From contig OZ024745.1 of the NCBI GenBank assembly GCA_964016885.1, forward strand, positions 47,988,001 to 48,052,000: a stretch of 64,000 nt of DNA, in the 5' to 3' direction. Origin of the DNA: Eledone cirrhosa (lineage: Eukaryota). Numbering within the stretch: the first letter of the stretch is position 1; each line of letters begins with the position of its first letter. The position numbers and the translations under genes are program-made. Shown piece by piece: positions 3,071 through 37,948 of this stretch. Under the pieces are notes generated by a model. It had not been told where the DNA came from and ran no database searches. It worked only from the letters and a program-made list of their open reading frames with translations.

Positions 3071-5689
3071 GAGGTACTGCTCAGACTGGAGTGTAGTATC
3101 TTCCCTCTGCCTTTCTTTTGTCGCTTGATTCTTTTCTTTTTTGTTCACTTTAATAGTGTGTTTTGTTTTGTATAAATAGCTTTGTAAAATAAATAGCAAT
3201 TATTATTTGTTTTTTAAATGATAGTTGTGTTTAATGAAATACAAAATCGAATGATGTGGATGTATTGAAAGGCTACCTTGAGAGTGGCTTTTAAGTTAGT
3301 TTGAAACGTTAATAAAAGAGTTAGTATCGTATGTCAAATCCGTGTAGGGCCTACCTTTGTACACAATATATAGTTCTAATAACCCGAAAGTATTTTACTT
3401 TGTCATTTTCAGTGACATATCAATTAAAGGATTTTTGATTTCTTTTTTTATTGGCCGTTTCTTTAGAGCGTTGTTATTAAGATGAGAAATTATAAACAAA
3501 TATAATATCTGAGAAAGTGAAAGCGGCACGCTATACTCCAAGACCACCTACTACTTTTCTTACCTAGTTTAGTCCTCAATAGTGACTTTCCACAAGAAAC
3601 ATTTAAAGTAGACCTGTATTATGAACCCCATTGAAAGCAAAGTTTTTAATATTGCGTATAAAATATAGCAAGCAATCACTTTTTTTTTTATATGGTATTA
3701 GTTTGATGACATTTAAAACTGAATTTGAACTAGGAGGTAATAGTAAATATTGTTAAACATAATACAATTTCCGTGTTTTCAAGTATGTTATAAAAAGATC
3801 GGGAGTGTATCTAAAATGTATTAAAAGCAACAGCTTTCAGTTTTAATGAAGGTCACATCAACCTTCAACGGATCCCTTTCCGTGATTGAGCGCACATATT
3901 TTTAAAGGAAGGAAACAAGACACGAACAAGTTTCCCTTAAATAAACCTTTATTTACAGTAGCAATAATAATGACAAAGTTTCCCTTTGTTCTTAAATACA
4001 AACAAAATTACAGAAACTGCGCTTATTTAAAATATGATAAAGAGTGACATATCAAAAGAGTATTTATATAGAAACAAAATTTTAAAATAAAATCTTAGGA
4101 GAATGTTAAGATTATGCAATATCCTAAGATTAATCCAATTAATAAACACGGAACCAAAACTAATTTCTGACGAAAGACAAAACCTTTCACATTGGAATAA
4201 GATAGTGTGATGGGGTTCATGTTTTTCTCAAAAGAATGACATGCTTAGAAACCAAATCAACTTATTTTTTCGTTTTGATTGTATATTTTTGTCTATTATA
4301 TTTATAAGGTCTCTAGCAATAATTAATTGATTATATGTATTTCTATTTAATTTTATATATTTGTTGCATGGTAATAAACTAAAATTTCATTTGTTATCAT
4401 GAAGGAAACTTTAAAATTAACCAAAATCGATGTCGAGTATCATTGACTACAGATCTTGTACGAAGAAAATTAAAATAAGACTGATTCACCGAAATCATTT
4501 CACTCGTTGACTCATATAATATATGTGTGTGTGCTTGTTATATATGTATAGCCAACGAGGGATTCCTACCCCGTATACGCAAAGAATCCAGTGATGAGTA
4601 GGACGAAATATTTTCATTTATCTGCATTTAATATTCCAAATTTCTTCCAAAAGTAAAAAGTAAGCTCCTCATATTGATCGGGAATGGGGATAAGATAATG
4701 TGGTAGTGTTCATACCTTTCTCAAACGATCAAAATTAAATTTAATTTTCAATAACGCTTCAGATTTTAAAAGCTGCGGCGATCATTAGAGATGCGATTTC
4801 AATAATTCCGAACAAAGTTGAAACTCGTAAACTTAACTAAAACATACGACCGCAACACGAAATGTTATTCGAAAATTCATAGCAAATTTCTCAAAGTATC
4901 GTTTATATTGCACTCGGTACGTTTAGTGAAATTCAGCTATACATTCTTATTAACGTGACAATAAAAAAAGTCCATAAAAGAAATTGAGACACTAATTAAT
5001 CTATTAATCTAATTAAACTAATCACACGTGTCTACTCAAAATATAAGCTAGTACTTCGCTAATGAAGCACATTTCTAATAGATAAAGAAAATTACATCCC
5101 AGAAATACGATATAGGATATGATTAGCCAAATATATTAATGCACTGAATGACTTGAGGTTGCATATTCAAATGATACAATTTTTGAGGAGTACTAAGATA
5201 AAAATATTGTCAAAGGAAACATTAGTTAAAACAACCAGGAAACAGCCTTGATAATTATCATAAATTGAAATAAATGTAAAAAGCCAATCGTTTAATTTAT
5301 GAAAGACCATATAGATCGTTTGGTAAAATAAAAAAAAATGATAAAAGAAATAAATGGTTTGTGTGTGATATGAACAGGGCAAGTCTTATATTGACTGAGA
5401 TGAATCTATTCTAATATTATGAAAAAAATTCAAATGTTTTAAAAAATCCTCAAGCGGAATTTCGGAATAAGCATTCCACGTATATCTATCTCCCTGTTCA
5501 AAATATAAATTCCAGAAGAAAAAAAAAGTTACATAATTTATGTGCGGGGGTCTATTCCGAAACTCCACTAACGACCATTAGTTATTTTCGGTTTGCAAAC
5601 CTTATGAAAATAGATTAATTACGGCATACAACATGCAAATATTTCAAAGAAAATAAAGGAGGGAAAAAATTATCTTAATCGATTGCTAC

Positions 5690-5863
5690 CTGCGCCTGTC
5701 CCGGTACTTGGGGAACCTGCATTTGACTTAATGCTTCACTCAAATCATGAATGTCGATAGAACCGTCTTTATTCACATCAAGACGGTTAAAAAGTTCTGA
5801 CAGTTTCTGTGTTTCTTCTTGTGGAAGATCATGATGAGAAATGTTAACCTGAGAAGACGACAT
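5690..5863 (-). CDS. SCaMC: Calcium-binding mitochondrial carrier (SCaMC, SLC25A24/25-like), first coding exon, EF-hand 1
   Basis: MSSSQVNISHHDLPQEETQKLSELFNRLDVNKDGSIDIHDLSEALSQMQVPQVPGQAQ contains the EF-hand loop DVNKDGSIDIHD. The exon ends at a phase-0 CAG|GTAGCA donor, as expected for SCaMC exon 1. No later exon was recognised in the window. Confidence 0.8.
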
Positions 5864-6546
5864 TTTAATAATCACATGAAATTCCACTTATTATGCTCGC
5901 AGAGAAGCAGAGTAAGACCGCAGCAAATGACGACTGACTACATTACAACCTGAAAACTTTATTATTCTTTTTTTTTTTTTTAAGTTATATATATATTGTT
6001 CCGTTATATTGGAATAAAAATTTCTGATTTTAAATTTAAGCAAAATAAAACATCACAATACATTTGCGAATATTTTTCGCAAGTTCAATTAATATTGATT
6101 AATGATTTTATTAGTAATAACTTATACATTTTTTTTCTTAGATATAAATTGTGGATTTTGTACCTATTATATTTTCATTTTATCTTAAGATTTACACGTG
6201 GAAAATAGCAATGAAAAGACGTGAAAATATCGCAAGTAGGAAATTACTTCAAGAAAAATAATGTTGAAAAAGATCTTTAAATTATTTTTATGACAATAAT
6301 CAAGATTTTAAACTGCATTTATTATTAATTAATGGAGCCAACAAGTACCCCCTACTACACGGTCGTTCGACCTGCTAGAAATATCAGTAACATTACACCA
6401 ACTCCTGGTCCTTTAGGATATCAATGACATAATCGAGAATGTAAATACATTCATTATATCGAACATGCTTCCGTTATATATTTTATTCATAGTTGTATAA
6501 ACAACATTACAACTTGTTTATAATTCTTATAAAATGGAAATATAAA

Positions 6547-14990: not shown

Positions 14991-15296
14991 ATCACCCTTG
15001 TCATTTAAAGGAATTTTCCTACGGACACCGTTACAATTATTTCTTCCCCATAGTGTTATAGTGTGAGAATACCAATTAAAATAGACAAATGCTTATACGT
15101 AGCAAAAAAAGAAAAAAGATACCAGTAGCATGTTCAAGGAATTTTCAACGCAGGCTGGGAACCGGTGGTTAAAAGGTTCCCTCTTTCACCAATTCTCAGC
15201 CACCTTGTTTTTTTTATCATTCTTAAATTAAGTTTAAAAAATATTGACGCCAGGAAAAGAATATGCCCGTTTCAATGTTTAATTGCCAGACGAAGT

Positions 15297-16895
15297 ATAA
15301 TTGTTTCTACTTTTGGCACAAGACCAGTGTATTACTGGTACTTTATTTTATCGACCCCGTAAGGATGAAAGGCAAAGTTAACCTCGGCGGGATTTGAACT
15401 CAGACCGTAACTCTATGCTTCAAAGCATGGAGTTACGTCCCTTTACGGTCTGAAAATATATCATATATTAGTTCCACGCTTAATATAGTAGGAAAGGTCC
15501 TTCATGTATGTATATATTAGACTCCATGCTTTGCAGCATAGAGTTATGGCCCTTCATGTTCTGAGTTCAAATCCCATCGAGGTTAGCTTTGCCTTTCATC
15601 CTTACGGGGTCGATTCAATTGACTTTCCCTCCCCCAAAATTGTTGGCATTGTGCCTAAATTAGAAATCATTGGTGGATTGGCAGTATCGGTAGAGGGTCG
15701 GACGCCATGCTTTGACGCATAGAGTTACGGCCTTTGCCATTCTGAGTTCAAATCCCGCCGAGGTTAACTTTGCCTTTCATCCTTACGGGGGTCGATAAAA
15801 TAAAGTACCAGTAATGCACTGGTTAATTGCTGGCCTTGTGCCAAACGTAGAAACAATTATTATTGGTGAATTGGCAGTATCGGTAGAGAGTCGGACGCCA
15901 TGCTTTCCAGCATAGTTACATCCCTTTACGGTCTGAGTTCAAATCCCGTCGAGGTCGATAAAATAAAGTACCAGTAATGAACTAATAATTGCTGGCCTTG
16001 TGCCAAAAAAGTAGAAACAATTATTATTGTGGATTGTGGACGGTGGATTGGCAGTATCGGTAGAGTCAGACACCATGCTTTGAAGCATAGAGTTACGTCC
16101 CTTTACGGTCTGAGTTCAAATCCCGCCGAGGTTAACTTTGCCTTTCATCCTTACGGGGGTCGATAAAATAAAGTACCAGTAATACACTGAGTAATTTTCT
16201 GGCTTTGTGCCAAAAGTAGAAACAATTATTTGGATTGGCAGTATCGATAGAGGGTCGGACGTCATGCTTAGCAGCATAGAGTTACGGCCCTTTAGGGTCT
16301 AAGTTCAAATCCCGCCGAGGTTGACTTTGCCTTTCATCCTTACGAGGTTGATAAAATAAAGCACCAGTAACGTACTTGGTCGATTTAATCGACTTTCCCC
16401 TCCCCCAAAATTACTGGCCTTGTGCTTATACTAGAAATCATTCGAGGTTAACTTTGCCTTTCATCCTTACGGGGTCGATAAAATAAATACCAGTAATGTA
16501 CTGGTTAATTGCGCCAAAAGTAGAAACAATTATTATTATTGAGTTCAAATCCCGCCGAGGTTGACTTTGCCTTTCATCCTTACGGGGTCGATAAAATAAA
16601 GTACCAGTAATGCACTGGAAATTTCTAGCCTTGTGCCAAATGTAGAAACAATTATTATGAGGGTGATGGATTGGCAGTATCGATAGATCGCCGGACATGC
16701 TTTGCAGCATAGAGTTATGGCTGTTTACATTCTGAATTTAAATATCCCACCGAGGCTAGCTTTGCCTTTCATCCTTACGGGGGGGGGGGGGGGGGTCGAT
16801 AAAATAAAGCACCAGTAATGCAGTGGTCGATTCAATCAACTTTCCCATTCACTTCAAATTACTGGCCTTGTGCCTAAAGTAGGAACAATTATTAT
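15297..16895 (+). repeat. Head-to-tail array of about 8 SINE copies (+), preceded by one inverted copy
   Basis: Copies start at about 15520, 15671, 15863, 16041, 16230, 16441, 16540 and 16661, each soon after the previous AAACAATTAT/AAATCAT tail. A minus copy lies at 15297-15430. Confidence 0.9.
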
Positions 16896-16989
16896 TATCA
16901 TAATATATATAATATACAAATAAGATGTAGCTTAGCAGCGTCTTGTATATATGTGTGTATGCAGTGACCAACGGTAACAGCATGAACGC

Positions 16990-17320
16990 CTCATGATCTC
17001 AGAGGACAGAACAGAAAAAGCGTTAACCCAGAGAATAGCAGCGGGTAGGGAGTTGGTTTAGAGACCCAGAACACCAGACGTTTCCACCACTATAGGTTCA
17101 ACTACAAACTCTATTAGAAAGCGGCGATCTTCAGCTTGTTTAGCAAACTGGGTCTGGGTCTATCGTTGATTCACCAGGTTGCTGCTGGAATAAGTGTCTC
17201 TGCGTGTCGTATCCCAAATGAGGGGCTTTATTACTGCGGAACGGAGAGATTTTTGTGTCATCTGGCCTTTTGCCGTCCCCTCGGTCTCTAACTACACCGG
17301 TTGGAGTTGCGATGGGAAGT
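16990..17320 (-). mobile_element. CRE-type RLE 3' fragment
   Basis: The minus strand reads RGDGKRPDDTKISPFRSNK..IWDTT, followed by a decayed PIVVETSGVLG. Confidence 0.7.
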
Positions 17321-18075
17321 GTGTATAAACATCAATACAATAATTATACCAGAAGTTATTTCATTACAAAAAAAAAAAGACAATTGACCAATAGTGCACT
17401 GGGGTCAATTTAATCGACTCCCCTCTTCCCTAAAATTGTTGGCCTTGTGCCAAAATCAGAAACCATTATATTCAAGCTTCTCCCGCTTCCACTTATATAT
17501 ATATATATATACACATACATACATACATATACATACTCACACGTATGTGTATGTGTTTTGACCTGCGTCTACTCTCAAAATGAAATAAAAATTCTAAAAT
17601 GGACTCGTCCGTACGTTAACTGAACAAGAACGCTGGATGTCTCGTTTCAAAATATTGTGTGGAAAATTTAATAGAAGATCGTATTGAGTCTAATATAATT
17701 GGTGGCAACGAGATAAGATTTTATATTTCTGTCTTGTCTCTTACTGCTAACCATTTTATCTGACAACTCAAATATTCGAAAGCAAACCATAACAATAATA
17801 TTAATAATAATTGAATTACCATCAACATAAAAATAGTTTCTAACATAGGCACAAAGTCACGGATTTATAGGATTAAATCGATCATAGTACTTGATTGGTA
17901 CTTTATTTAATCAACCCCTGAGGGTGAAAGACAAAGTTGACCTGGGCGAATAATACTTTCACTATGTTTAAAATTTAAGTTATAAGTATTATACAGTGTT
18001 TGGCTTCCACGACGACGACGATCATTTTGTGAATTTAACCATATAAACTATTGAAAAAATAACAAAAAAAATAAC

Positions 18076-19452
18076 ATGCCGTTTTCCACCTCACCTCCCG
18101 AAAATGCATATTACACAAATAACCTATCTTCGAATGAAGTAATGCAACAACCATCACCGATAAAACTTAAATACGACAGAGACTTCATTCTAAAGTTACA
18201 ATATAATGAAGCTTCACTCACCAAACCAGTCGGACTTCCAGATTTGCCAGAAATATTATTTAAAAAACCACAATTTCCGAAGCAGGTTAAATATAATAAA
18301 ATACGGCGAGATATCATACCTTTTAAATGTTCCAAAAATATGAAGTCTGTGGATGACTTTGGAAATGATTCGGAGGACGAAGAACTTAATACGAAGATGA
18401 AGAACATTGCAAGTAGACTAGCACCGGAAAAATATAAATCTGTTTTGTCACAAATACGAGATATTCAGATTGATAAAGAAAGCAAGTTAGTGGCTATTAT
18501 GAATCTTTTGTTTGAAAAAGCAACCAGTGACCCTATGCTATCGACAGCATATGCTTACGTGTGTCGTTGTCTGACTTTGAAACGAGTTCCATCCGTCCAT
18601 TGCCACAAAGAAGTTGTAAACGTCCATAAAGTTCTTAATAAGAAATGTCAAAAAGAATTCGAAAAATACCAAGCTGAAGAAGCAATGATAAATAAGAAAC
18701 TGCAGCAAATTGAGAAATCTGAAAGCAATATGGAAAAATTAAAATTTCAAACTGAACTTGTCAAAGAAATTGAAACTTTCAAGAGAAAATCGCAAGCAAA
18801 TGTTCGGTTTCTCTGTGAATTGTTTAAATTGGGTGTATTGAGGGAGAACACCATGCAGAAATACATTAAAAGAATGCTGCAGTCCCTTTCAGAAAACAGT
18901 TTGGAAAGTGTATGTCTTTTGTTTAATACAATAGGTGAAAGACTTGACTCAGGGAAAAAGTTTAAAATGGATGTGTATTTCATCCAACTAAAAAGTATCG
19001 CAGAAGAAAATTCAACCCCGAACAGACTGAAGGTAATGATTGAAAATCTGATCAGTTTACGTGAAAACCAATGGAATCAAAAAGAGGCCGAGAATCACAC
19101 AAAACAGAAGGGAAATACGAGTATAAAAGATGGCATGAAAGAGGAAACTATAGCAAATAGTTATTATAACAAAGGCAAAGATATTTACCAAAACGGTGAT
19201 GGTTCTACAGCTTCTAACATGGGAGATAGTTTTCCCCCTTCCAGCTCATCCTATCAACAACAACATATGAAAGAAGAGTACCTCAAACCTGATTTTATGA
19301 AAATCTTCGATATTGACTCTCAAAATAAATGTACGGAAAGAAAGTATTCTAACTTCGTTTACGATGGACCGAACAGGGCCTCTGCCCGAGGAGATGTGAT
19401 GATACCGAACTGCAGCCCAAATATCGTTAGAGAGACCAAAGAAGCTGTTTAA
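18076..19452 (+). CDS. EIF4G: Intronless eIF4G-like protein (eIF4E-binding motif plus a single MIF4G domain), probable retrogene
   Basis: Uninterrupted 458-aa ORF. KYDRDFILKLQ plus ASLTKPVGLPDLPEIL are the canonical and non-canonical 4E-binding motifs. The MIF4G domain reads FEKATSDPMLSTAYAYVCRCL, KCQKEFEK, NVRFLCELFKL, SLESVCLLFNTIGERLD, MDVYFIQL, LRENQW. An in-frame TGA at 18052 with no AG before the ATG supports this start; AATAAA lies at 19839. Confidence 0.9.
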   Translation: MPFSTSPPENAYYTNNLSSNEVMQQPSPIKLKYDRDFILKLQYNEASLTKPVGLPDLPEILFKKPQFPKQVKYNKIRRDIIPFKCSKNMKSVDDFGNDSEDEELNTKMKNIASRLAPEKYKSVLSQIRDIQIDKESKLVAIMNLLFEKATSDPMLSTAYAYVCRCLTLKRVPSVHCHKEVVNVHKVLNKKCQKEFEKYQAEEAMINKKLQQIEKSESNMEKLKFQTELVKEIETFKRKSQANVRFLCELFKLGVLRENTMQKYIKRMLQSLSENSLESVCLLFNTIGERLDSGKKFKMDVYFIQLKSIAEENSTPNRLKVMIENLISLRENQWNQKEAENHTKQKGNTSIKDGMKEETIANSYYNKGKDIYQNGDGSTASNMGDSFPPSSSSYQQQHMKEEYLKPDFMKIFDIDSQNKCTERKYSNFVYDGPNRASARGDVMIPNCSPNIVRETKEAV

Positions 19453-23123: not shown

Positions 23124-23314
23124 TCAGAATTGAAATCCATCCATTGGTACATCCTGACCAGCACTAAACTGGTATTGTTGAGCACTTTCATCAGTTAAAG
23201 GAACAATACTTTTATCCTCTTCTTCAGTGCCAAAGTAACGTTCAATTATACCAAAAGCTTTTTGATAAATCTCTCGGTTTTCATGACTTTGCAGAAATTC
23301 AATCTTATCCAGAC
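23124..23314 (-). CDS. KPNA6: Importin alpha coding exon 13 (terminal)
   Basis: [29 protein letters not shown]...VPMDGFQF* (TGA at 23124-23126). Confidence 0.95.
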
Positions 23315-24049
23315 CTAGAGAAAATGAAAAGGTCAAATTTATTAATTAAGGGAACTAGATTTATTTACTCTTTTATTATTATATTTCTAATGAAAGACAC
23401 AGAAGTTCACTTATAATAAACATATATTCAGGCTCATTGAGAGTATTTAAGTATATACTTTGAATCACTGTTGGATAAGGGCAATTGTTAATTATCCACA
23501 TAACATATTGAACCATGCAACATGTATATATTACTAAAAATGTAATTCATTGTTTTTGAATCAATTGCCAAGCTTACTCTTTTGACCCTTTTCATACCAA
23601 CCCATCCAGAATCACCACTGGTTCAATGAAATAAAATAAAACATTTAAAAATGTTTCTACTTAAATTAAAATCTTCCAACATAATTTGATATAAGTACCT
23701 TTCGTTAAATTATCTTACTAATTCTATTTTAATATAGAAATAATTAATAATTTTAGTAAATCCATCCATTCTTCATTAATTCAAATATAGTATATTTCTT
23801 TAGAAATACAGTAATGAAAGGGTTAAATTATACAACAGCATGTTTACCAATCTAAACCATTCAAATTATTCAATCAACCAATTAGTTTATATCGTTTCAT
23901 ACAAACTATAATACAACATAGAAGTTTCTGTAATACAAAATATCCAGTAGTAAAAAAACTACAATATACTTAGCAATAAAGAAACCAAAAAAGAAAGTAA
24001 AATAAGAACAAGTAAGAGAAAAAAGTGAAAAAAAAAAAGGAGTGGAGGA

Positions 24050-25370
24050 GACAGGTTTACCCTTCAGTAAGCCATCTCAGCCCTCAAACATGAGATCAAC
24101 CTGTTCAAGCCTGAGGTCGTAAATATAAGCAACGGTGAAGCTGATTTTCAAGATGCCATACTCAGCATCTAACCCTCCCTGACTTGGGGCTCAGCTAATG
24201 CTGAAAGATGCCATCTACATTCTCGGCTCTCCAATCTGCCCAAAAGCCATATGAGAGTACTTGGAGACCAAGCATGAGGATCTGGTGACTACAACAGAGA
24301 GATCGCACCTCATTGACACATACCTGGTGCTCTTCTGTATGAGGAACTGCTTTGCTCTCCCCAAACTCCTCTTCATGTTGCACAGTGCGCTTTGTTAACC
24401 TCTCGCAGATTGCCTCATCAAACTCTAGGCCACCATCTGATGTTGTGCTGACCTCATATGTAATGTTTGCTTCAACAGCGTCGGCTGGAAAATCCATGAA
24501 ATTTGGAGGCCTCAGCCTCTGATCCACTTTTGTCCTGGCACTGCAGGCCTATCTCTCCTCTAGCTGCACTCTCATCAAGGTCCTTCATAAGACGGCAGAA
24601 CCTTACGTGGCCTGGGCACTGGAGTCAGCTCTGGCCAATTGGACAAATGAAGGCCTTGTTGTTCCCCAATATACAGATGTTCAATGTAACTGGGACAGCA
24701 GCAAATGTAGGTCTACTTTCAGACAAATTGAGTTCACTTTGGACCAACAGTCTCACAACCAAACAGCAGTACATAGTTCAACTCGATGTTTTTCTCATCA
24801 ACTGGTACCCTGATGAATGAACTTGCATCGGAGTAGACCAGTGCCTTGGCTTTTGCATGTGTGAGCCACATAAATCCCACTGTGGAGCTATTGTTGACAA
24901 GTTTGGTCTGCACCTGCTATCATGCCGCCATAACACAGGCTAGTTCCCGACACCTTACTCTGAACAACATCATCAGAAGGAGCCTCAATGCAGCCAGCTT
25001 CCTGTCACAACTAGAGCCAACTAGCCTTGGCTGTGGTGATGGCAAGTGCACTGATGGAATAACCCTCTTCTGATTCAAGGGAAATAAATTCCTAATCTGG
25101 GATGTGGCATGTTGTGACTCGTTCTCCGCCTTCAATGTAGGAGAAAGGAAAATGACTAAATACCGGGGCTTGACCAACAGCTTCCGTTTTGTACCAGTCA
25201 CCGTCAAGACCTCAGCACTTGGTCTCAGCATTGCTGATTTCCTTCATAAAATCGAAAAGACAGCAGCCCGCCTGAGGAAGGAGCCCTGTGAGGTGGTGTA
25301 GTTGTTACAGCAAGTGTTGCTGGCCATTCCCTGTGGCAATACTTTTGCCATTTTATCTGTAGAGCACAGC
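24050..25370 (+). mobile_element. Decayed CRE-type RT/RLE retrotransposon in an importin intron
   Basis: RHLTLNNIIRRSLNAASFLSQLEPTSLGCGDGKCTDG..IWDVACCDSF..KYRGL..FVPVTVKTS. Confidence 0.75.
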
Positions 25371-25470
25371 CCAAACAGTCATAATTATATAAGCCAATGT
25401 TTTCAAATTAGGTTGTCTTTTTATAACTTTTAATAAAAATGATTTATTTTTTTTATAATGTAGTTAGGAC

Positions 25471-25656
25471 TGTTTTGGGAAAGCCAGTACAATGCAAGTT
25501 CAACATCACTCTACATTTTTTTTTTTTTTTAAAAAGGGGTCCTAACCACCAAATATGAAATATAAGGTAAAAATGTAAACTGTTTTGTTGGTCTTATTTT
25601 AGTCTAGTTTTCACTCCTTTATTTCAAACTTGCATTGTACTGCCTTTCCCAAAACA
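25471..25656. mobile_element. MITE-like element with about 30-bp TIRs
   Basis: tgttttgggaaagccagtacaatgcaagtt ... aacttgcattgtactgcctttcccaaaaca. Confidence 0.65.
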
Positions 25657-25862
25657 TGAATAAATTTTCTCTGAAACAGTTTTTGTTTCATTTAATGTCT
25701 TATTAAAGTTAGTGTGGTAGGGACTGTCTGGAAAATATGTTCATATGGATTGCACAATGGCATAAGGATTCTGTGACAAGTAAGGGAACCATTAGAATTA
25801 GCATATACATTAATACCTTAAAGGTCATAAAATTAATATGGACACAAAAATAACCTACTAAC

Positions 25863-26038
25863 CAAAACATTCTTCAATACTTATAGCATAAGGATTTGTG
25901 TTGCTGTGTAATTTGGCATCTTGTTCTCCAAGGCGTAAAATATTTTCAAGACCATTGAGAGCAACATGAACAATTTTGCTATCCAAAACAGTCAACAAGT
26001 TACATAAAGGAACAATGCATCCCTGATCTACAAGAAAT
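25863..26038 (-). CDS. KPNA6: Importin alpha coding exon 12
   Basis: [58 protein letters not shown]. Confidence 0.95.
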
Positions 26039-27489
26039 CTGAGAGTAAGAAAAGAAAATTTAGATGACATATTACAATATTTAACACCTAAGTTGAGTAA
26101 AATAGTTAATATAACAAATATACAGAAAAAAAAGAAATTCAGAAAATTTTACAAAAGTAAAAAATGAATTTATTATGAACCTTGCTATGTAAGAATGTAT
26201 TTCTTAGAGCAACATGTTTCCTCTAATCAATTTAAAACCTTGGAATTTGATAATTGTAACTGAATATGTGTATAAAATAAAGGCCTTGTATAAGGGCTTT
26301 TGGATGTTATTTATAATGGAATGGCTGTAAAGTGCCATACAGCTTATTTTCTTTTTTAACATTGACTCCACTACATTATGAGCTAAAATTTGCTGATAAA
26401 CTTTCACTATTCATTCCCCTGGGTACAACATTACCTTTAATATCTAGCCAGTCTTTCAGATGATGCATGTTGTCTTTCATGCAAGTTAAACATAACATCC
26501 TAAAGATTATATATACCTGCAGTTTAACAACAAACCAGTAAAAGAATAAACCATTGTTGATTTTAAATAGAATCTCTACTTGTATTAGGTGAAGTACTGA
26601 AGTATTTGAAATTTTGTCAACCTTAGTTTAGGAAGAGTGAAATCTTCCAAATGAAGAATGTATTTTTTTTTTTTTTACTGTTTGCTCAGAGTTCTCTTGA
26701 TTTGTCCCATCAGATGCCCCACGTCTGACATTTGATTGACATCTACTTTGTTGACTTGTACATTGTGGATGATGTTTGTTAAAGTTATGGACTGCTAATA
26801 AATATATCTTCATTGATACATATGGCACCTCTGTCAGAGATTCCATCCTTACTGACTGTTAAAGAGGACATAACCTAACATAAGGATTTCTGTATCTAAT
26901 TTATTTTGTGCTATATTGCTTTGGAACAAGCTTTTGGGAGAAGCTTCTATTTAGCTTAATAATAGCCATCATCATTTTCACATCTATTTTCCTGTGCTAG
27001 CATGGGTTGGATAAGACATTTTTTTAGGCAGTAATTGATAGCTAGATTACCCATCTTGCCCTGTTCCTCTTTTTAAATAAGGTACTGACTTTCACACATT
27101 GAATATTAACACTTCTAAATATTCTTACAGATAACTTTACCCTTTTTTAAAATCCATATTTTTCTAGCATATTGATGCCAGCACTTATTCAAATTTCAGC
27201 AAATTCAAGAAGCATAAAAATATCATCTTCCTTTCTAAAAATGTGGGTGATTTCATTCCACATATATAAACAGGAAAAATATGCATGCAGAAACACATTC
27301 ATATGAGTAGTACAGATTAAATAAACTTATTGACTTTATGTCCGTTTTTCCATTCTGGTATGGGTTGGATGAGACTTTTTGAAAGTATTTCTATGGCTGC
27401 ATACCCATTCTGATGCCCCCACTAACTTAATATTATGAACTGCATTAGCAATATCAGGTAGAAAGCAAAGAGAAGAGACAAACATACAC

Positions 27490-27780
27490 ATTAGTGGTTA
27501 GAGAGTTGGATTCACAATCTTGAGGTTGGGCATTTGATTCTCAGACTGGGCAATGTGTTGTGTCCTTGAGCAATACACTTATTTCCCATTGCTCCAGTTC
27601 ACTCAGTTGCAACGTCACTGATGCTAAGCTGTATCTGTGGCATAAAGTGGGAGACTGGTATGAATGGGTGAAAGCTGGTTGTCCACGAAAACACCTTGCT
27701 CAGGCTAATGCCTTGGAGGGGAACCTTCTAGGTGCCAAACTCATGGTCATTCGAAACTGAAGGGGGGTCTTTAGCCTTTA
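27490..27780 (+). mobile_element. Second tRNA-derived SINE family (CORE-like)
   Basis: TAGTGGTTAG A-box, decayed B-box, then GTGTCCTTGAGCAA..CACTT..TTGCTCCAG. Partial copies occur near 1430-1545, 34620-34760, 41740-41780 and 55620-55710. Confidence 0.6.
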
Positions 27781-27989
27781 CTCATATATATAACCCATGC
27801 CTGCATGGACCACAGTTTTAAAAGGTGGTGATGATATATATAATGGGCTTAATACAGTTTCCATCCACCAAATTCCTTCAATTTCCAATATGTTTAAATA
27901 TTTCAGTAAAACTGAAAACATAATATCAATTATGAAAAAAAAAAGTTAGTTTTAACTACTGGTTTTCAGTTGCAAGTAAAAGTTGCAAC

Positions 27990-28535
27990 TAAAAGTCTGT
28001 GATTGCTTTCTTGCTTGTCTGTAATGTAATACAACCAAAAGGGCACATAATGGGAAAATACTTTGAAAGGAAATTGACCCTGAAATGGGGATACAAATGG
28101 AATAAAGCAAGTTTCACGTAAATTGGCGCACGGGTTCGCGAGATATGGGGTTTTTCCGAGTACCTTCATAAACAGAGAGAGAGAGAGAGATAGAGAGAAA
28201 GAGATAGTGGTTGTGAGAGAGTGGATTGAAAGAGACATAGAAGGAAAGTGAAAGAGGGAGGGAGAGAGAGTTGGTGGTGTTGTGTGTGTGTCTATGACCA
28301 GTGTATATAGATCACAGACACATATATATACACACATACATATATATATGTAATACAAACACACACATTTATATATATACATACACACATATATATATAT
28401 GGGCCTTCCAGTTTCATTTCACATTATATACATGTTTGTACATATTCTAATTTTTTAAAATTATTTTTAAGTGACCATGACTTTTTAAAAATATTTTGAA
28501 GTGAACGTGACCCAATGGGTCACGGGTAATCTAGT
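27990..28535 (-). mobile_element. Helitron/Helentron-like non-autonomous element with internal microsatellites
   Basis: The 5' end is ACTAGATTACCCGTGACCCATTGGGTCACG (hairpin). It carries (TA)n/(CT)n tracts and has a second copy at 12090-12405. Confidence 0.5.
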
Positions 28536-28709
28536 TGTAAACTAAAAATTCAAATGAAAATAATATGATACTACAAAATATATGTAATTAAGCTGTGTAA
28601 AAAGAAAAAGCAACCACTTTTTATGTTATTAAAAATAGATCACACGACAGTTATTTTAAATATTTAGTTATTCTGAATGAAGTAATATTTTGTATTAATA
28701 AGATCATAC

Positions 28710-28837
28710 CGAATTTGTTCTGGAGAACCTCCAGATGTAGCATTTGTTATGGCCCAAGCAGCCTCCTTTCTTGTTTTAAACTCTGCTTTACCAAGAATTT
28801 CAATTAAAACTGGAAATATGTTGGCATCAATCACAGC
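28710..28837 (-). CDS. KPNA6: Importin alpha coding exon 11
   Basis: [42 protein letters not shown]. Confidence 0.95.
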
Positions 28838-28903
28838 CTAAAAACATAATAAATGAATTATCTTCAGTTTTCTATCAAAACAGTAATTATTAAGAATATT
28901 TAA

Positions 28904-29152
28904 CCCTTTCATCATTGTACTTCTAATCAAATATACTGCCTATGTGTTTCAGTTAATTTTGAAAATCAATATTTGGAGGAATTTAATAAGATAACTAAAT
29001 TTTTTATTAGTAAGCCGATATTTAGAACATTACTTAATATTTCTTCAATAAAATTGTGAGGTAAGGATTTAATATAAGTACAAATCATTTTAAAATGAGC
29101 TGTTTTGTATCACATAATCAGGGCAGTTTCAGGCAGTTCAGTATTAAAAGGG
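28904..29152. mobile_element. TTAA-flanked CCCTTT...AAAGGG MITE (piggyBac-like), representative of about 10 copies
   Basis: TTAA on both sides. Similar copies lie near 2310, 23585-23826, 32548-32725, 41025-41375, 46245-46568, 50437-50667, 52830-53072, 54838-55076 and 56400-56643. Confidence 0.7.
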
Positions 29153-29213
29153 TTAAGATATTAGTAAAATTAATATTAAACACAAATACTGCAAATATAA
29201 TAATTATCATTAC

Positions 29214-29339
29214 CTGTATTTGCATTCGGTTTCCTGCAGTAATATTTGATATTGTCCAACATGCTTCTTTTCGAACAGCTTCCTTAGAACTACCCAGCAG
29301 AAGTAGCAATGATGGCAATGCAGAGCAGTTCAAAATAAC
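29214..29339 (-). CDS. KPNA6: Importin alpha coding exon 10
   Basis: [42 protein letters not shown]. Confidence 0.95.
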
Positions 29340-29742
29340 CTAGAAACACAATGGTTTCAATTTTGCAAATTACTGATATACAAAAATAAGATAGCAGGAT
29401 GGATTGCAGATAATTTAGAAGAAAACAGTTGGTATATTGGATAAAACATTCCGACCCCCTACTATGTACATGATCCCTAACTCTGAGCGATGGCATGAAA
29501 TTCACCGAAAAATAAGTATGCATCACAGCAATGATGTAAAATGATTGCTGATTTGTGCAGAAAGTTGTATAAATAAGAGTAGTCAATACAGTATAATATA
29601 TCCCTTTATACATGTAAATATAAGATAGCCAATTTATACATGTAAATATAGTATAATCACTTTATATATTTAAATATAATATAGCCATCACCATCATCAC
29701 CATTTTACGTCCATTCTTCCACGCTAGCATAGGTTAGACGCC

Positions 29743-29780
<38 letters not shown>

Positions 29781-30305
29781 TCTTGCAATTGATATCCAAA
29801 GGTGGAGAGATACAAACAGTGCATTACACCAATCGCATTTAGTTTTAGATATTTTGAAAATTGACCGTAGGGTCAATTTTCCCTTCTATCTCTGGGATCA
29901 ATAAAATAATTACAGGAATTGATTCATCCAGCCAAACCCTCCTCTGTTTGTTTGTGATCATGTGCTAACATAAGAAATCAATATTTAAAGGGTGGTGGAT
30001 TGACAGATGTTGTAGTATTGGGTAAAATAGCACTGCAGTATTTGTTTTGAACAGGAGAGGTGACAATACACATCCTTGGCGGAGCCCGACTCCCACATTG
30101 TATGGTTTCAATTTAGCACCATTAATCTGAACATAAATACTTGGGTATTCATATAGAGACATCAGGGCAACAGCCAGCTGATGTTAAAACAGAGCCTAAA
30201 AACGAAAATGCTAAAATTAAAATAAGCATATAACAGTAAAGAAAAGTTGTTTGTCTAAAATGAGATAATATGTAAAGTATCTGAATAACAAAAAAAGAAA
30301 ATCAC

Positions 30306-30384
30306 CTGTGTTTGATAGTCATCACCAGTGACAATGTTACCAACAACACGGAGAGCTGCAGAAACAACACCCAAGTTGGAATTT
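30306..30384 (-). CDS. KPNA6: Importin alpha coding exon 9
   Basis: NSNLGVVSAALRVVGNIVTGDDYQTQ. Confidence 0.95.
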
Positions 30385-31161
30385 CTAGAGAAAGAAATAA
30401 AAAATAAATAAATTGCTCAATCAATAATTCAAGACAAAATAATTATAATTTGGAACATATTTAGAGTGGCTGATGAATGAATGGGGACATCACAGGTCAG
30501 AGAGGGCTGATTGGCCTTGAAGACTTGACAACCACTTTAGTGCTACAATACAATGTACCCATCACACTATATTAAATGGTAGTGGATGCCACGACAAAAT
30601 AAACCAAGTCCATTCTGTAAAGTGGTTGGTGTTAGGAAGGGCATCCAGCAGTAAAAACTGTCATAATATAGAGCATATGAGCAAGGTATGGTGGTTATCC
30701 AATCTATCTTGGATTGGACCATGACTTATTCCAGAATGGAAAGCAGATGATGATAGTGAAAGATAAAATATTTTTGTACTTCATGTTTAATTACTATTTA
30801 AATGAATACTTTCAATTCCAAGTATTGTTTACTTGTTTGAAAGCATTAGAAAAAAATTGCTTTTAGTATAACAGCATGGCAGCTTGAGGCAGTATCTTGC
30901 ACTATAGTAACCCTATCAACACTGTTTAATGTCTTCTGTGATAGTTGTTTATATTGCTCATAAACAATATATTGGGCAGTGTTGCAGTTTGGTAAACATT
31001 TACTGGCATATACCATACTTAGAATAAGGCATGGGTTACTGTCAAGTAGGACATATAGTCAGAGTTAAACCTGCCAGAAAACAGACCTCATCCATCCCAT
31101 ACAAGGATGGAAAAACCAGACATAGATACAATCATGATAACAATAATTTACTGCATTTTTT

Positions 31162-31299
31162 ACTAAAGAAATTTTAGCCTGATAGTGAGGCTTAGAACCC
31201 TCTAAGAGATGGAAAGAGATGAGTATGTACGTCAATACTCATCTTTTTCCATTTCTTAGAGGGTTCTAAACCCCACTATCAAGCTAAAATTTCTTTAGT
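31162..31299. repeat. Inverted repeat, 65-bp arms, 8-nt loop (intronic hairpin)
   Basis: 31162-31226 is the reverse complement of 31235-31299 apart from a few transitions. Confidence 0.9.
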
Positions 31300-31369
31300 C
31301 AAAACTACAACGAAAGCTATTTCTAATTTCAAACTCCCTCGCTGTTTCAAATACAAACTTACTTGATAA

Positions 31370-31580
31370 CAATAATTGTTTCTACTTTTGGCACAAGGCC
31401 AGCATTTTGAAGGGAAGGAGAAAGTCAATTAAATTGACCTCAGTATTTTATTTCATCAACCCCACAAAAATGAAAGGTAAAGCTAACCTCAGGGGAAATT
31501 TGAACTTAGAACGTAAAGGGATGTAACTATGCGGAAAAGCATGTTGCCCAATGCTCTACCGATACTGCCATTCCACCCAC
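31370..31580 (-). mobile_element. tRNA-derived SINE (dominant family)
   Basis: Reverse complement of the 10381-type consensus. Further minus copies lie at 44893-45076, 49868-50060 and 53780-53953. Confidence 0.8.
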
Positions 31581-31614
31581 TTATAGTGATAAGAAGAAGA
31601 AATGAAGCACTCAC

Positions 31615-31778
31615 ACTAAAAGTTCAACCAAACGACGGCAAACACCAGCATCTATTACTGCATGTATCTTTTCATTTGGCCCATCAGACAAATAGGATAA
31701 GGCCCAACAAGCATCTGCAAGTACATCTTTATCGGCATGGTATAATAAACGAGCCAACACAGGAAGAGCAGGAGAAAC
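31615..31778 (-). CDS. KPNA6: Importin alpha coding exon 8
   Basis: [54 protein letters not shown]. Confidence 0.95.
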
Positions 31779-32275
31779 CTGAAGGTAAAAAAAATACAAT
31801 CAATGGTTATTTTTAAAAAGCAAATTTATAAAGATTAATATTACTTTTAACAAAATAGTTTTGCTAAGAGTTTTATAGTGTAAATGCACACACATATGGG
31901 TGAAGGTATTCAAATTACAATTGAAGCCTTTTGATACCAAAATGCTTGAAACTGCTTCTAGTTCTATGATAGAAAATCTATTTGTTAAGTTTAGTTATTG
32001 CTTCACCTATTTTTCATGAAAGTGAGGAAGGCATACACAAATTAATTTGTTTCTTTTCTCTCTTAACCCTTTTGTTACACACTGAGGTTAACTTTGCCTT
32101 TCATTCTTCCTGGGTCAATAGAAAGTACCATTTAAATAGTGAGGTCAATATAATTGACACCGTCACCAATTGGTGACCTTGGGCCATAAATTAGAAACCA
32201 CCATTTACCAGTTAATAAAATAATGGTTAGTGAAATTAATCTTTTATTTCAATAATATTAGAAATATATATTTAC

Positions 32276-32375
32276 CTTTGCAAAGTCAGGTGGGGGGTTT
32301 TTCCCCCTGCATAAATTGGATAAGCACCACACTGCATTTCTAGTCATAGATAAACTTGGATGTTGGCTAAGCAAC
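32276..32375 (-). CDS. KPNA6: Importin alpha coding exon 7
   Basis: [33 protein letters not shown]. Confidence 0.95.
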
Positions 32376-34949: not shown

Positions 34950-37948
34950 CAGTTTATAAGCTTTTCTAGGTGGGAAATGACAATGGGCTGGGTGGAGTAG
35001 GAATCATGCTAGCAGAAAAATGGGTAGATAAGATAATAGACGTAAATAGAGTGAACGACAGAATAATTAAAATAAGACTTGTCCTCAATAGAACTACTGT
35101 GACAATAATATCTGCGTATGCACCCCAACCCGGACTGCCTGGCATTATAAAAGACAGATTCTATGAGTCGTTAATGCTCATAACCTCCCAAATAACCGAC
35201 AGTGACTATATAATTATTGCTTCACTAAATCCCTGCCCCATGAAGAATGTACCTCCCAACATAGCCTCATAGTTAGCGACCTCATAGTCAGGATGAGACG
35301 TATTCGACAACAGAAGAGGACTATCTTTATGAGAAAAATATGGAAGTTAAAGGACCCCACAGCCAGTAATAAATTTACAAGCATATTACTTGATGCTTTT
35401 GACAGTAAGCAAGAGCAATTAGAGTTGTACAATATAGAGGAACAGTGGGAATTCCTGAAAGCTAACCTGCTGAAGGCAACAGATGAAATCTGTAGCTGGA
35501 GCAGACCTATAGGCAGGAGGAGAGTAACCTGGTGGTGGAACAGTAAGGTGGAGGAGTCAATCAAGGCCAAAAAGCAGGCTTGGAAAGTATGGTGGGATGG
35601 GGGAAGTAGAGAAGACTATCAAGTGGCCAGGAGGGAAGCTAGGAGACAAGTGTACTTCGCAAGAAGGGAAGCAGAGAAAAGAAAGTTCAAGCATGTTCTA
35701 CAATGCAAGGACCAAAAATGTGAGGTGTTCAGGATTGCTAGACAATCTGTCAAGGAGAACCGTGATATTGTCGGGGAGCAGTGTGTCCGTAATGATGATG
35801 GTGTACTTGCCATCACTGACGCTGATAAGAAGGTAGCTTGGAAGTATCACTACGAAAGGCTACTAAATGAGGAGAATGAATGGGAGAAAAACAGCCTCCC
35901 TCACATCGATCCAATAGAGGGACCAGCAGTGCAAGTTGAAGGTAGTATAATAAGTAAGGCAATCAAAGATATGAAGACGGGCAAGGCGGCTGGGCCTTCG
36001 GAAATATTTGCTGAAATGATGAAAGCATCTGGAACGGTGGGACACACTATGGTCACCCAGATAGTAAACCAAGTTATACAGAATGGGTCGTACCAAAGGA
36101 CTGGCGTAGTAGCATCATCATTAACTGTTACAAGGGTAAAGGAGACACCCTAGATAGGGGAAACTATAGAGGCATTAAATTAATTGACCAGGTCATGAAG
36201 GTCACAGAAAAAGTAATAGCGCAACTAATCAGAGAGCGAATTGATCTAGATGAAATGCAGTTCGGGTTTGTGTCAGGTAAAAGTACCACAGACGCTCTTT
36301 TCATTGTACAACTACAGGAGAAGTACCTAGCTAAAAGTAAACCCCTCTACTTAGCGTTTGTAGACCTGGAGAAAGCCTTTGACAGAGTCCCCGCTCCATT
36401 ATCTGGTGGGCTCTGAGAAAACTAGGTGTAGAATGGCTTGTGAGAGCTATACAAGCCATGTATAAAGAAACAGTCAGCAAGGTTAGAATTAACGAATATA
36501 GTGAAGAGTTTAGCGTAAAAGTTGGTGTTCATCAGGGCTCCGTCCTTAGCCTCCTCCTATTTATTATCACCCTCCAAGCTATAACGGAGGAGTTCAAGAC
36601 CGGCTGCCCATGGGAACTTCTATACACAGATGATCTAACGCTCATAGCCGAATCAATGGCTGAACTAGAGAAGAAATTCCAAACATGGAAGCATGGCCTA
36701 GAATCAAAAGGCCTTAAAGTTAACTTGTCTAAGACTAAAGTCCTAATATGTAGGAAGGAGAATAGGGCACTGGTCCCATTTGGGAAATGGCCATGCTTAG
36801 TGTGTAGGAAAGGAGTAGGCAGAAACTCCATTTTATGTCCCAAATGCAAAGTATGGGTGCATAAAAGATGTAGTGGGATCACAGGTAAGCTAATTAAGAA
36901 TATAGATTTTATATGTGGCCGGTGCTCTGGTGCAATAAGTAGCAGCAAATGCCCACAGAATACTAGCTCATTCCATTGCCCAGATGGTTCTATAGAAATA
37001 GTGGACACCTTCCGTTACCTGGGTGATAAAATCAGCAGTGGTGGAGGGTGCTCTGAAAATACTGTAGCTAGAGTCCGAACGGGATGGAAAAAGTTCAGAG
37101 AGCTTATACCACTATTGGCCGCTCAAGGTTTCTCTCTAAAAATAAAAGGCAGGCTGTATGATGCCTGCATACGAACAGCGATGTTACATGGCAATGAGAC
37201 ATGGGCCTTGTGTGCAGAGGATCTACGCAGACTGGAGAGGAACGAAGCTTGCATGCTCCGTTGGATGTGCAATAGTAATATACGCGAACGGCAAAGCATA
37301 AATGAACTAAGTGAGAAATTAGGAATAAGAGGGATCAGATGCTGTTTACTCGAAAGACTACGTTGGTATGGTCACGTGATGCGCACGAAAGATGACAGCT
37401 GTATAAAAAAGTGCAGGGCGATAAATAGACGGTAGCTACGGAGTAGGCAGACCCAGAAAAACCTGGGACGACTTGATAATAAAATCCGACCTCACACACT
37501 CACACCTCTCCAAGACAATGTCACTGGACCGAGATCTTTGGCACTACATAGTAATACAGAAGACCCGCCTTGGCTAAGTACAAAGCGAAACCTCTCTTAA
37601 CTAAAATACACCCCCGTCCCACTAACCCTACCCACACCGCCATCTACACCACCCCTTTCGATGTAAAGCTATGTTGGTACCACAACATCCAGTCCTAAAT
37701 AAATGAGGTTGTGTAGGTGTCACAACAAAAAAACACACAGTCTACGATGTAATGTGGCCGTGTAGGTAACACGGTAAAAACATCCCAGTTCACACTGTAA
37801 ACGTGGTTGGTGTTAGGAAGGGCATCCAGCCGTAGAAAATCCACCAGACAGTCCTCAGCAAGACAACCAATCTTGCCTCAAGTGGGCCAATTCCCGTCCA
37901 GACCCATGCTAGCGTGGAAAATGGATGTTAAACGATGATGATGATGAC
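34950..37948 (+). mobile_element. RTE-BovB-clade LINE, 5'-truncated and frameshifted, antisense in an importin intron
   Basis: APE endonuclease (GVGIML, ISAYAPQ), TWWWN, FVDLEKAFDRVP, GVHQGSVLS, LLYTDDL, FRYLGD and LRWYGHV, then a 3' tail ending GGATGTTAAACGATGATGATGATG. Confidence 0.92.

Follow-up and report, generated by a model that had tools for sequence, protein, structure and literature searches.

A short eIF4G derivative of octopods and cuttlefish, intronless in Eledone cirrhosa, with an eIF4E-binding segment and altered eIF4A-contact residues

Relation to described eIF4G-family and eIF4E-binding proteins

In canonical metazoan eIF4G (eIF4G1/3 type), the PABP site sits in a long N-terminal region. 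The window, which is the whole 64,000-nucleotide stretch of Eledone cirrhosa DNA that was analysed, contains a gene for a much shorter protein that is an eIF4G family member by descent and has a MIF4G/HEAT-1 domain of the eIF4G type. It shares a homologous eIF4E segment and MIF4G with the canonical type in equal order and is its sister in the tree. It differs from it as the long N-terminal region, the Trp motif, MA3, and W2 are absent, the eIF4A contacts are changed, and the gene is intronless.

DAP5/eIF4G2 is comparable as an eIF4G-family duplicate minus one eIF4F arm. According to the passages available, DAP5 has lost eIF4E binding and needs eIF4A, which makes the short gene its mirror image. 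The DAP5 features (no eIF4E motif, eIF4A contacts kept, W2) form the opposite pattern in the short gene, and a separate DAP5-like gene is present on C23.

Mextli of Drosophila and C. elegans also combines a MIF4G-like domain with a two-part eIF4E-binding region and, in the sections available, is described as competing with eIF4G (PMC4573856). The same sections give Mextli an N-terminal MIF4G-KH, C-terminal eIF4E motifs, and eIF3-mediated activation (PMC4573856). The short protein, in contrast, has the eIF4G order with an N-terminal motif, gives no Pfam match to a KH domain, and nests inside eIF4G.

4E-BP1-3/Thor, 4E-T, and Cup resemble the short protein in having canonical and non-canonical eIF4E motifs and, as is predicted for the short protein, no eIF4A recruitment. 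They are largely disordered and are not known to have a MIF4G, whereas the short protein is eIF4G-derived with a MIF4G that is predicted to be folded. Its similarity to PF05456 (aa 29-72) is weak and below the cut-off (E 0.18, 12.2 bits vs cut-off 24), and C1 carries a true 4E-BP gene.

The short protein does not fit the tested features of canonical eIF4G, DAP5, Mextli, or 4E-BP. An earlier note on this DNA had called it a "4E-BP/Mextli-type" regulator. We abandon this term, which mixes a repressor class with an activator, as the short protein lacks the defining architecture of both. Among the listed titles and abstract openings on octopus eIF4G, cephalopod paralogs, and truncated repressors, a set that covers few subscription papers, none describes this gene.

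Locus, parent gene, and orthologues

The features of the gene and its surroundings are listed in Table 1.

Table 1 Features of the short eIF4G gene and of the surrounding window
Feature	Position in window	Strand	Remarks
Intronless ORF, short eIF4G derivative, 458 aa (P0001)	18076-19452	+	Orthologues share the MPF start at the same Met; frame open across parent intron positions
Two-part eIF4E-binding segment, aa 30-65	18163..18270	+	Canonical motif YDRDFIL (18172-18192) and downstream LPDLPEILF stretch
Shortened linker, aa 66-102	18271..18381	+	Without Trp-x-Pro eIF4A-binding motif
MIF4G/HEAT-1 domain, aa 103-333	18382..19074	+	Predicted folded
Helix-1 patch KNIASRLA, aa 109-116	18400..18423	+	N110 = human S767; S113 = yeast N615/DAP5 N86; A116 = yeast T618/human T773
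DPML replacing EPxF	18529..18540	+	D152 at yeast E659
Last-repeat patch NRLKVMIEN (NRLKVM = aa 316-321, 19021-19038)	19021..19047	+	Yeast-like K319 = yeast K837; V320 = F838/F978; N324 = human D982
Octopod tail, aa 334-458	19075..19449	+	Mostly predicted disordered; without post-MIF4G motifs common in eIF4G; missing from cuttlefish form
Importin-alpha-like gene exons	23127-32375	-	Encodes Arm repeats, with Arm_3 in the final exon; oriented convergently to the short eIF4G gene
Cluster of near-identical dispersed repeats, upstream of the gene	~15200-17460		Some tandem/inverted; presumably SINE-like
Retroelement fragments encoding reverse transcriptase	3-791; 29968-30183; 35206-37435	-; -; +	One with a PHD-like finger match
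First-exon-like frame with EF-hand	5678-5887	-	Begins MSSSQVNISHHDLP; presumably resembles the N-terminus of a calcium-binding mitochondrial carrier

The single Pfam family above cut-off in the short protein is MIF4G (PF02854; aa 107-331, E 3.9e-30). Its best solved relatives are human eIF4G1/3, followed by DAP5 and yeast eIF4G. AlphaFold2 (66-row alignment) predicts one confident region (block-mean pLDDT 91-98, aa 101-330), gives block pLDDT of 75-85 for aa 31-60, and is low elsewhere. The top Foldseek match of the predicted MIF4G is the HEAT-1 domain of human eIF4G (8huj_B, TMt 0.85).

W333 is the sole Trp of the protein; hence, the Trp upstream of MIF4G is gone, as the earlier note had stated for the AWKP motif. 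The spacing from the motif Tyr to helix 1 is 76 aa, compared to 126 in the parent described below. MA3 and W2 gave no Pfam match in the short protein and no remnant by tblastn within the window, and no trace of the eIF4G N-terminus was detected in the rest of the window. The protein thus also lacks the second eIF4A site. Rfam gave no match within the window.

DNA runs X1-X3 stem from one sample, possibly the source of the assembly. One contig from these runs covers the ORF with no differing letter listed inside; hence, we dismiss an assembly artefact. The runs behave as DNA because all 30 bins are covered, repeats included.

The short gene lies ~3.7 kb from the last coding exon of the importin-alpha-like gene (150/159 candidate frames scanned). 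The octopod disordered tail has conserved blocks at aa 401-418 and 447-458 (EY-KP---KIFD and PNCSPNI-RET-EAV), which are candidate short linear motifs. F-D-x-D in this tail presumably resembles a TOR-signalling motif, imperfectly.

Besides the DAP5-like gene, full-length eIF4G is encoded twice in the genome, by intron-containing genes on C28 and C22. The stretch of the C28 gene from the eIF4E motif to the MIF4G end is interrupted by 8 GT-AG introns; the motifs considered here read YDRDFLL, NAWKP, RSILNKLT, EPSF, and SRVRFM. The consensus motifs used in the earlier note are therefore correct. Its substitutions are present in the DNA: RSILNKLT reads KNIASRLA, SRIRFM reads NRLKVM with Phe replaced by Val, and the eIF4E motif YDRDFIL is found at aa 33-39, outside the interval that the note had delimited.

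Seven of the parent junctions map inside the uninterrupted frame of the short ORF and one in the deleted linker. The gene is intronless in this genome across the parent intron positions and lies on another chromosome. As the short ORF is uninterrupted at these positions, we infer retroposition. The event must be old because four-fold sites are saturated against the parent (7/23). Similarity to the parent has decayed on the DNA level (best blastn E 0.068), and the proteins are 42% identical over MIF4G.

The tree (37 rows, LG+C20) includes 30 references hand-chosen from matches, other long branches among them, and is built without a canonical cuttlefish eIF4G. The six short rows form one clade (100/98), which is sister to the C28 type (84/90). 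When the interface patches were removed (LG+G4), support was 97.8/100 for the short clade and 99.7/100 for its sister position. This agrees with the earlier claim that the protein derives directly from eIF4G. Retroposition probably predates the split between octopods and cuttlefish. The branches of the short clade are long (stem 0.51, then 0.92 and 0.99).

Three alternatives for the origin were rejected. Separate octopod and cuttlefish origins, modelled as a clade of octopod short and octopus C28 proteins, are rejected by the AU test (p=0.0067). Convergence as the cause of the octopod-cuttlefish clade is at odds with its support of 97.8/100 after dropping the patches. C22 eIF4G as parent conflicts with the grouping with the C28 type, both with the patches and without them.

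The C22 gene (~19.863-19.876 Mb, minus, L028-L029) reads YDRDTLL and NAWLP, and its contacts are canonical. P0047, its orthologue, sits on a long branch (1.03) and apart from the C28 gene. One eIF4G exon of the C28 gene is partly duplicated, donor site included, within the intron that follows it (C28:78403791-78403841, L007). The O. bimaculoides eIF4G models P0045 and P0163 are without the exon for the last MIF4G repeat (SRVRF), which the C28 gene here has; either the annotation is incomplete here or the models represent an isoform that lacks the Phe contact to eIF4A.

Orthologues of 488-490 aa are found in Octopus sinensis, O. vulgaris, O. bimaculoides, and Argonauta hians. Orthologues are represented by NCBI gene models, and the database labels are eIF4G-like or MIF4G protein, or "eIF4G1/3-like". 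A cuttlefish-type form was found by a full-library search (best 150 of 3225 matches) and a profile search (5 matches/7961 candidates). It has 361 aa in Sepia pharaonis, and a 365-aa relative is 86% identical to the Sepia form. This form carries YNREFLL, likewise has a short linker, and ends two residues past the last MIF4G Trp. A shared-word search for longer homologues gave 1 protein/1939 candidates, and ESM Atlas matches were only eIF4G-like and unnamed viral clusters.

Could the gene be a decaying retro-pseudogene or a relaxed duplicate that has no function? Its lack of introns and the long stems would fit this explanation. However, five octopod and two cuttlefish-type protein groups retain an intact ORF, and the frame is still open though four-fold sites are saturated. 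Conservation also tracks the domains: identity with Argonauta is 94% in the eIF4E segment (34/36) and 90.5% in MIF4G (209/231) and falls to 52-58% in the termini (15/29 in the N-terminus, 72/125 in the tail), with 26/37 in the linker. Compared to O. bimaculoides, the short gene keeps 34/36 residues of the eIF4E segment and 179/192 of MIF4G, and the canonical gene keeps 33/36 and 182/192. As the conservation of the short gene matches the rate of its parent, it points to constrained re-tooling instead of decay, which we regard as extremely unlikely. The alignments indicate rapid early change, after which the altered surface became fixed. The copy was free to specialise since two canonical eIF4Gs and the DAP5-like gene remain in the genome.

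eIF4E-binding segment and eIF4A-contact surface

Residues aa 30-65 align gaplessly to the eIF4G chain 5t46_B (E 4.6e-5) from a structure which we take to be an eIF4E-eIF4G complex. The canonical eIF4G feature, a YX4L-phi motif upstream of MIF4G, is recognisable in both lineages, as YDRDFIL in octopods and YNREFLL in cuttlefish; the C28 parent has YDRDFLL. The position of the octopod Ile is Leu in 60/64 references and Ile in 2/64. The Leu-to-Ile substitution could lessen eIF4E binding.

The whole two-part segment is kept, as the earlier note had held for the 4E-binding motifs: 34/36 residues are identical to the Argonauta short protein and 22/36 to the C28 parent. Judged from the alignment, both eIF4E motifs, canonical and non-canonical, appear to be present and constrained, and the protein may compete with eIF4G. 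Among 15 scored candidates for eIF4E in the genome, 5 are exon matches that fall at two loci, and no intronless copy was found; the octopus eIF4E proteins are encoded on C7 and C9.

The eIF4A contacts were taken from passages of the secondary literature and mapped by residue number on the 4iul and 2vso chains; full contact tables could lengthen the list, which was drawn up after the earlier note had pointed to two patches.

W579: This residue is named as an eIF4A contact in the passages available (PMC9177959).

N615 and K837: The equivalent residues in DAP5 are N86 and R295, as far as the excerpts state (PMC4402527, PMC10746786). In the parts available, substitution of N86 with alanine abolishes eIF4A binding by DAP5 and leaves eIF3 co-precipitation intact (PMC4402527).

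T618 and E659: Both are contacts in the sections available, where charge reversal at E659 abolishes binding (PMC4138323).

F838: The equivalent residue is F978, and an F978A variant breaks the high-affinity site according to the passages available (PMC3074137).

D982 and other human residues: S738, R764, S767, T773, Q779, Q783, and D982 are given as contacts in the excerpts available, and the T773I and D982R variants are inactive in tethering (PMC7470955).

The available parts of PMC4703368, PMC10462655, PMC13586536, PMC3089569, and PMC4164784 gave no further contact residues.

The equivalents of W579, N615, T618, E659, F838, and D982, the canonical eIF4A-contact residues, are all changed or absent in both lineages. 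The reference set comprised 132 of 153 scored proteins, after removal of the cuttlefish protein and of rows that did not cover the whole domain. At least 80% conservation among them is reached by 56 columns, of which the parent keeps all 56, the octopods 37, and the cuttlefish 39. Six of these columns are contacts, and all six are changed in octopods and in cuttlefish, compared to 13/50 and 11/50 of the other columns, respectively (Fisher, p=0.0008 and p=0.0004). If R-to-K (the yeast residue) is scored as kept, the enrichment has p=0.011 in octopods and 0.006 in cuttlefish.

Among polar columns, contacts are changed in 5/5 and others in 1/13 (p=0.0007), with 12/13 conserved polar non-contact residues kept in both lineages. 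D982 had come up as the single changed polar control before it was recognised as a contact. All four N/T/E/F contacts are kept in 103/132 references and lost together in 1/132. These results bear out the selective loss of eIF4A contacts proposed earlier, and the random spread of substitutions that the note had named as the contrary outcome was not observed.

However, the domain also diverged off the interface (13/50 columns, core included); therefore, part of the contact signal is a general speed-up. In addition, the register of helix 1 in the cuttlefish form is ambiguous. Columns with 95-98% conservation that are off the listed contacts changed as well, namely L to A112, F to V183, G to A241, G to C247, and L to M267. 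The earlier statement that the hydrophobic core is retained thus applies only in part, though the fold is predicted to be intact.

The interface might also be weakened and not lost. In this case, the protein would be a minimal conventional eIF4G that binds ordinary eIF4A less tightly and serves tissue-specific cap-dependent initiation. The predicted fold would allow this, and in tethering assays the middle domain can suffice for initiation. At K837 and at the basic positions of helix 1, residues are unchanged or replaced conservatively. Three of the 12 contact positions on the list (K107, Q126, K319) are retained or carry the yeast residue in octopods, among them the R764-equivalent Lys and Q783, and Q779 is variable in the parent too. 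Octopod changes such as E to D, K to R, R to K, and F to V or L are conservative, whereas the mutants in the papers are alanine substitutions or charge reversals. Against this, all three interface sites and the MA3 site are altered or missing. In the cuttlefish form, helix 1 is degenerate and the Phe is Ser. A minimal conventional eIF4G is therefore improbable in our view.

Degenerate eIF4G copies occur elsewhere. P0025 and P0112 are similar to the short protein in that several or all N/T/E/F contacts are lost, but both fall outside the short clade and show no intact eIF4E segment ahead of their MIF4G. With all four contacts lost, P0025 is a possible independent case. P0025, P0031, P0037, and P0042 have tandem or degenerate MIF4G, three of them behind zinc-finger/coiled-coil N-termini.

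Candidate functions and significance

We put the chances at about even that the short protein is an eIF4E-binding, eIF4A-uncoupled regulator, acting as a translational repressor or mRNA-storage factor. As most eIF4A contacts are changed and the eIF4E segment is kept, the helicase is likely not recruited though eIF4E would be bound. Judged by its sequence, the protein would occupy eIF4E on capped mRNAs. Mutagenesis of the equivalent human and yeast residues suggests that eIF4A would be recruited weakly or not at all. The protein would compete with full-length eIF4G for eIF4E, ordinary eIF4F would not be assembled, and translation of capped mRNAs would be blocked or redirected. As the remaining MIF4G surface is conserved, a partner for it is implied; a new RNA or protein partner there may confer target or tissue specificity.

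Besides the conservative contact changes, the divergence off the interface, and the Ile of the octopod motif, two facts count against such a regulator: for a pure decoy, the conserved MIF4G is superfluous, and an ordinary 4E-BP gene exists. Roles without eIF4E are very improbable.

The conserved surface might instead recruit the ribosome. In the manner of Mextli, the protein would then be an eIF4A-independent activator that binds eIF4E and works via eIF3 or another factor on MIF4G. Precedent comes from the available sections on Mextli, whose MIF4G-like domain and eIF4E motif promote translation through eIF3 (PMC4573856). The intact eIF3 co-precipitation of DAP5 N86A, reported in the passages available (PMC4402527), and the 12/13 polar non-contact residues kept in both lineages also fit. 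However, the post-MIF4G motifs, found in 66 and 38 of 105 references, were seen in none of the 5 short proteins checked, and there is no KH domain. The human eIF3-binding region (1011-1104) lies in this part, and the cuttlefish form stops just past the domain and thus before its equivalent. We consider such an activator distinctly unlikely.

A divergent eIF4A paralogue offers an alternative partner, which also counts against the eIF4A-uncoupled regulator. Two intact tandem eIF4A genes lie at C9:41782304-41792193 and C9:41810091-41819652 (L065-L071). They are 78% identical over 382 aa, and all nine helicase motifs checked are present in both. The first (divergent) copy has E268A and D296H at eIF4G-contact positions (6zmw_j numbering). 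Possibly, the short eIF4G was re-tuned to this copy and forms with it a private initiation or mRNP-remodelling complex. In the parts of the source available, E268 and D296 are the two eIF4A positions that yielded engineered obligate eIF4G:eIF4A pairs, with E268S/R and D296R/H/K partners (PMC7470955). The short eIF4G has Asn at S767, the partner position of E268.

On the other side, two changes among five eIF4A contact residues on a 22% divergent background are not significant alone (about 0.3, an estimate). Octopods have Ser and Gln at 779/783, so there is no acidic change that would complement D296H. T298 and R45 of eIF4A, the partners of the lost T773 and D982 contacts, are unchanged. Hence, we hold this pairing to be unlikely. 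The fuller version is slightly more doubtful. Coleoids would then have a second, orthogonal eIF4F: the retroposed mini-eIF4G and the tandem-duplicated eIF4A would have adapted to each other at the residues used for the engineered pairs and would serve as a private machine for initiation or mRNA storage, kept apart from the housekeeping complex.

The earlier reading thus stands for descent, contact loss, and the eIF4E segment. It did not consider a probable retrocopy origin or the cuttlefish lineage; nor did it cover the changes at EPxF and D982, the lack of MA3/W2 and of post-MIF4G motifs, or the divergent eIF4A.

One short motif is common to eIF4E-binding repressors and eIF4G, and the route from one class to the other can rarely be traced. 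In this case, the parent, its derived copy, and two lineages of descendants are all identified for a scaffold that appears to be without its eIF4A arm and with its eIF4E arm. The short protein would be a natural separation-of-function protein for probing an eIF4E-MIF4G complex without the helicase. If the pairing with the divergent eIF4A is true, it would represent a natural orthogonal eIF4F. For cephalopods, it is a candidate for a lineage-specific translational regulator that is now filed under the label "eIF4G1/3-like".
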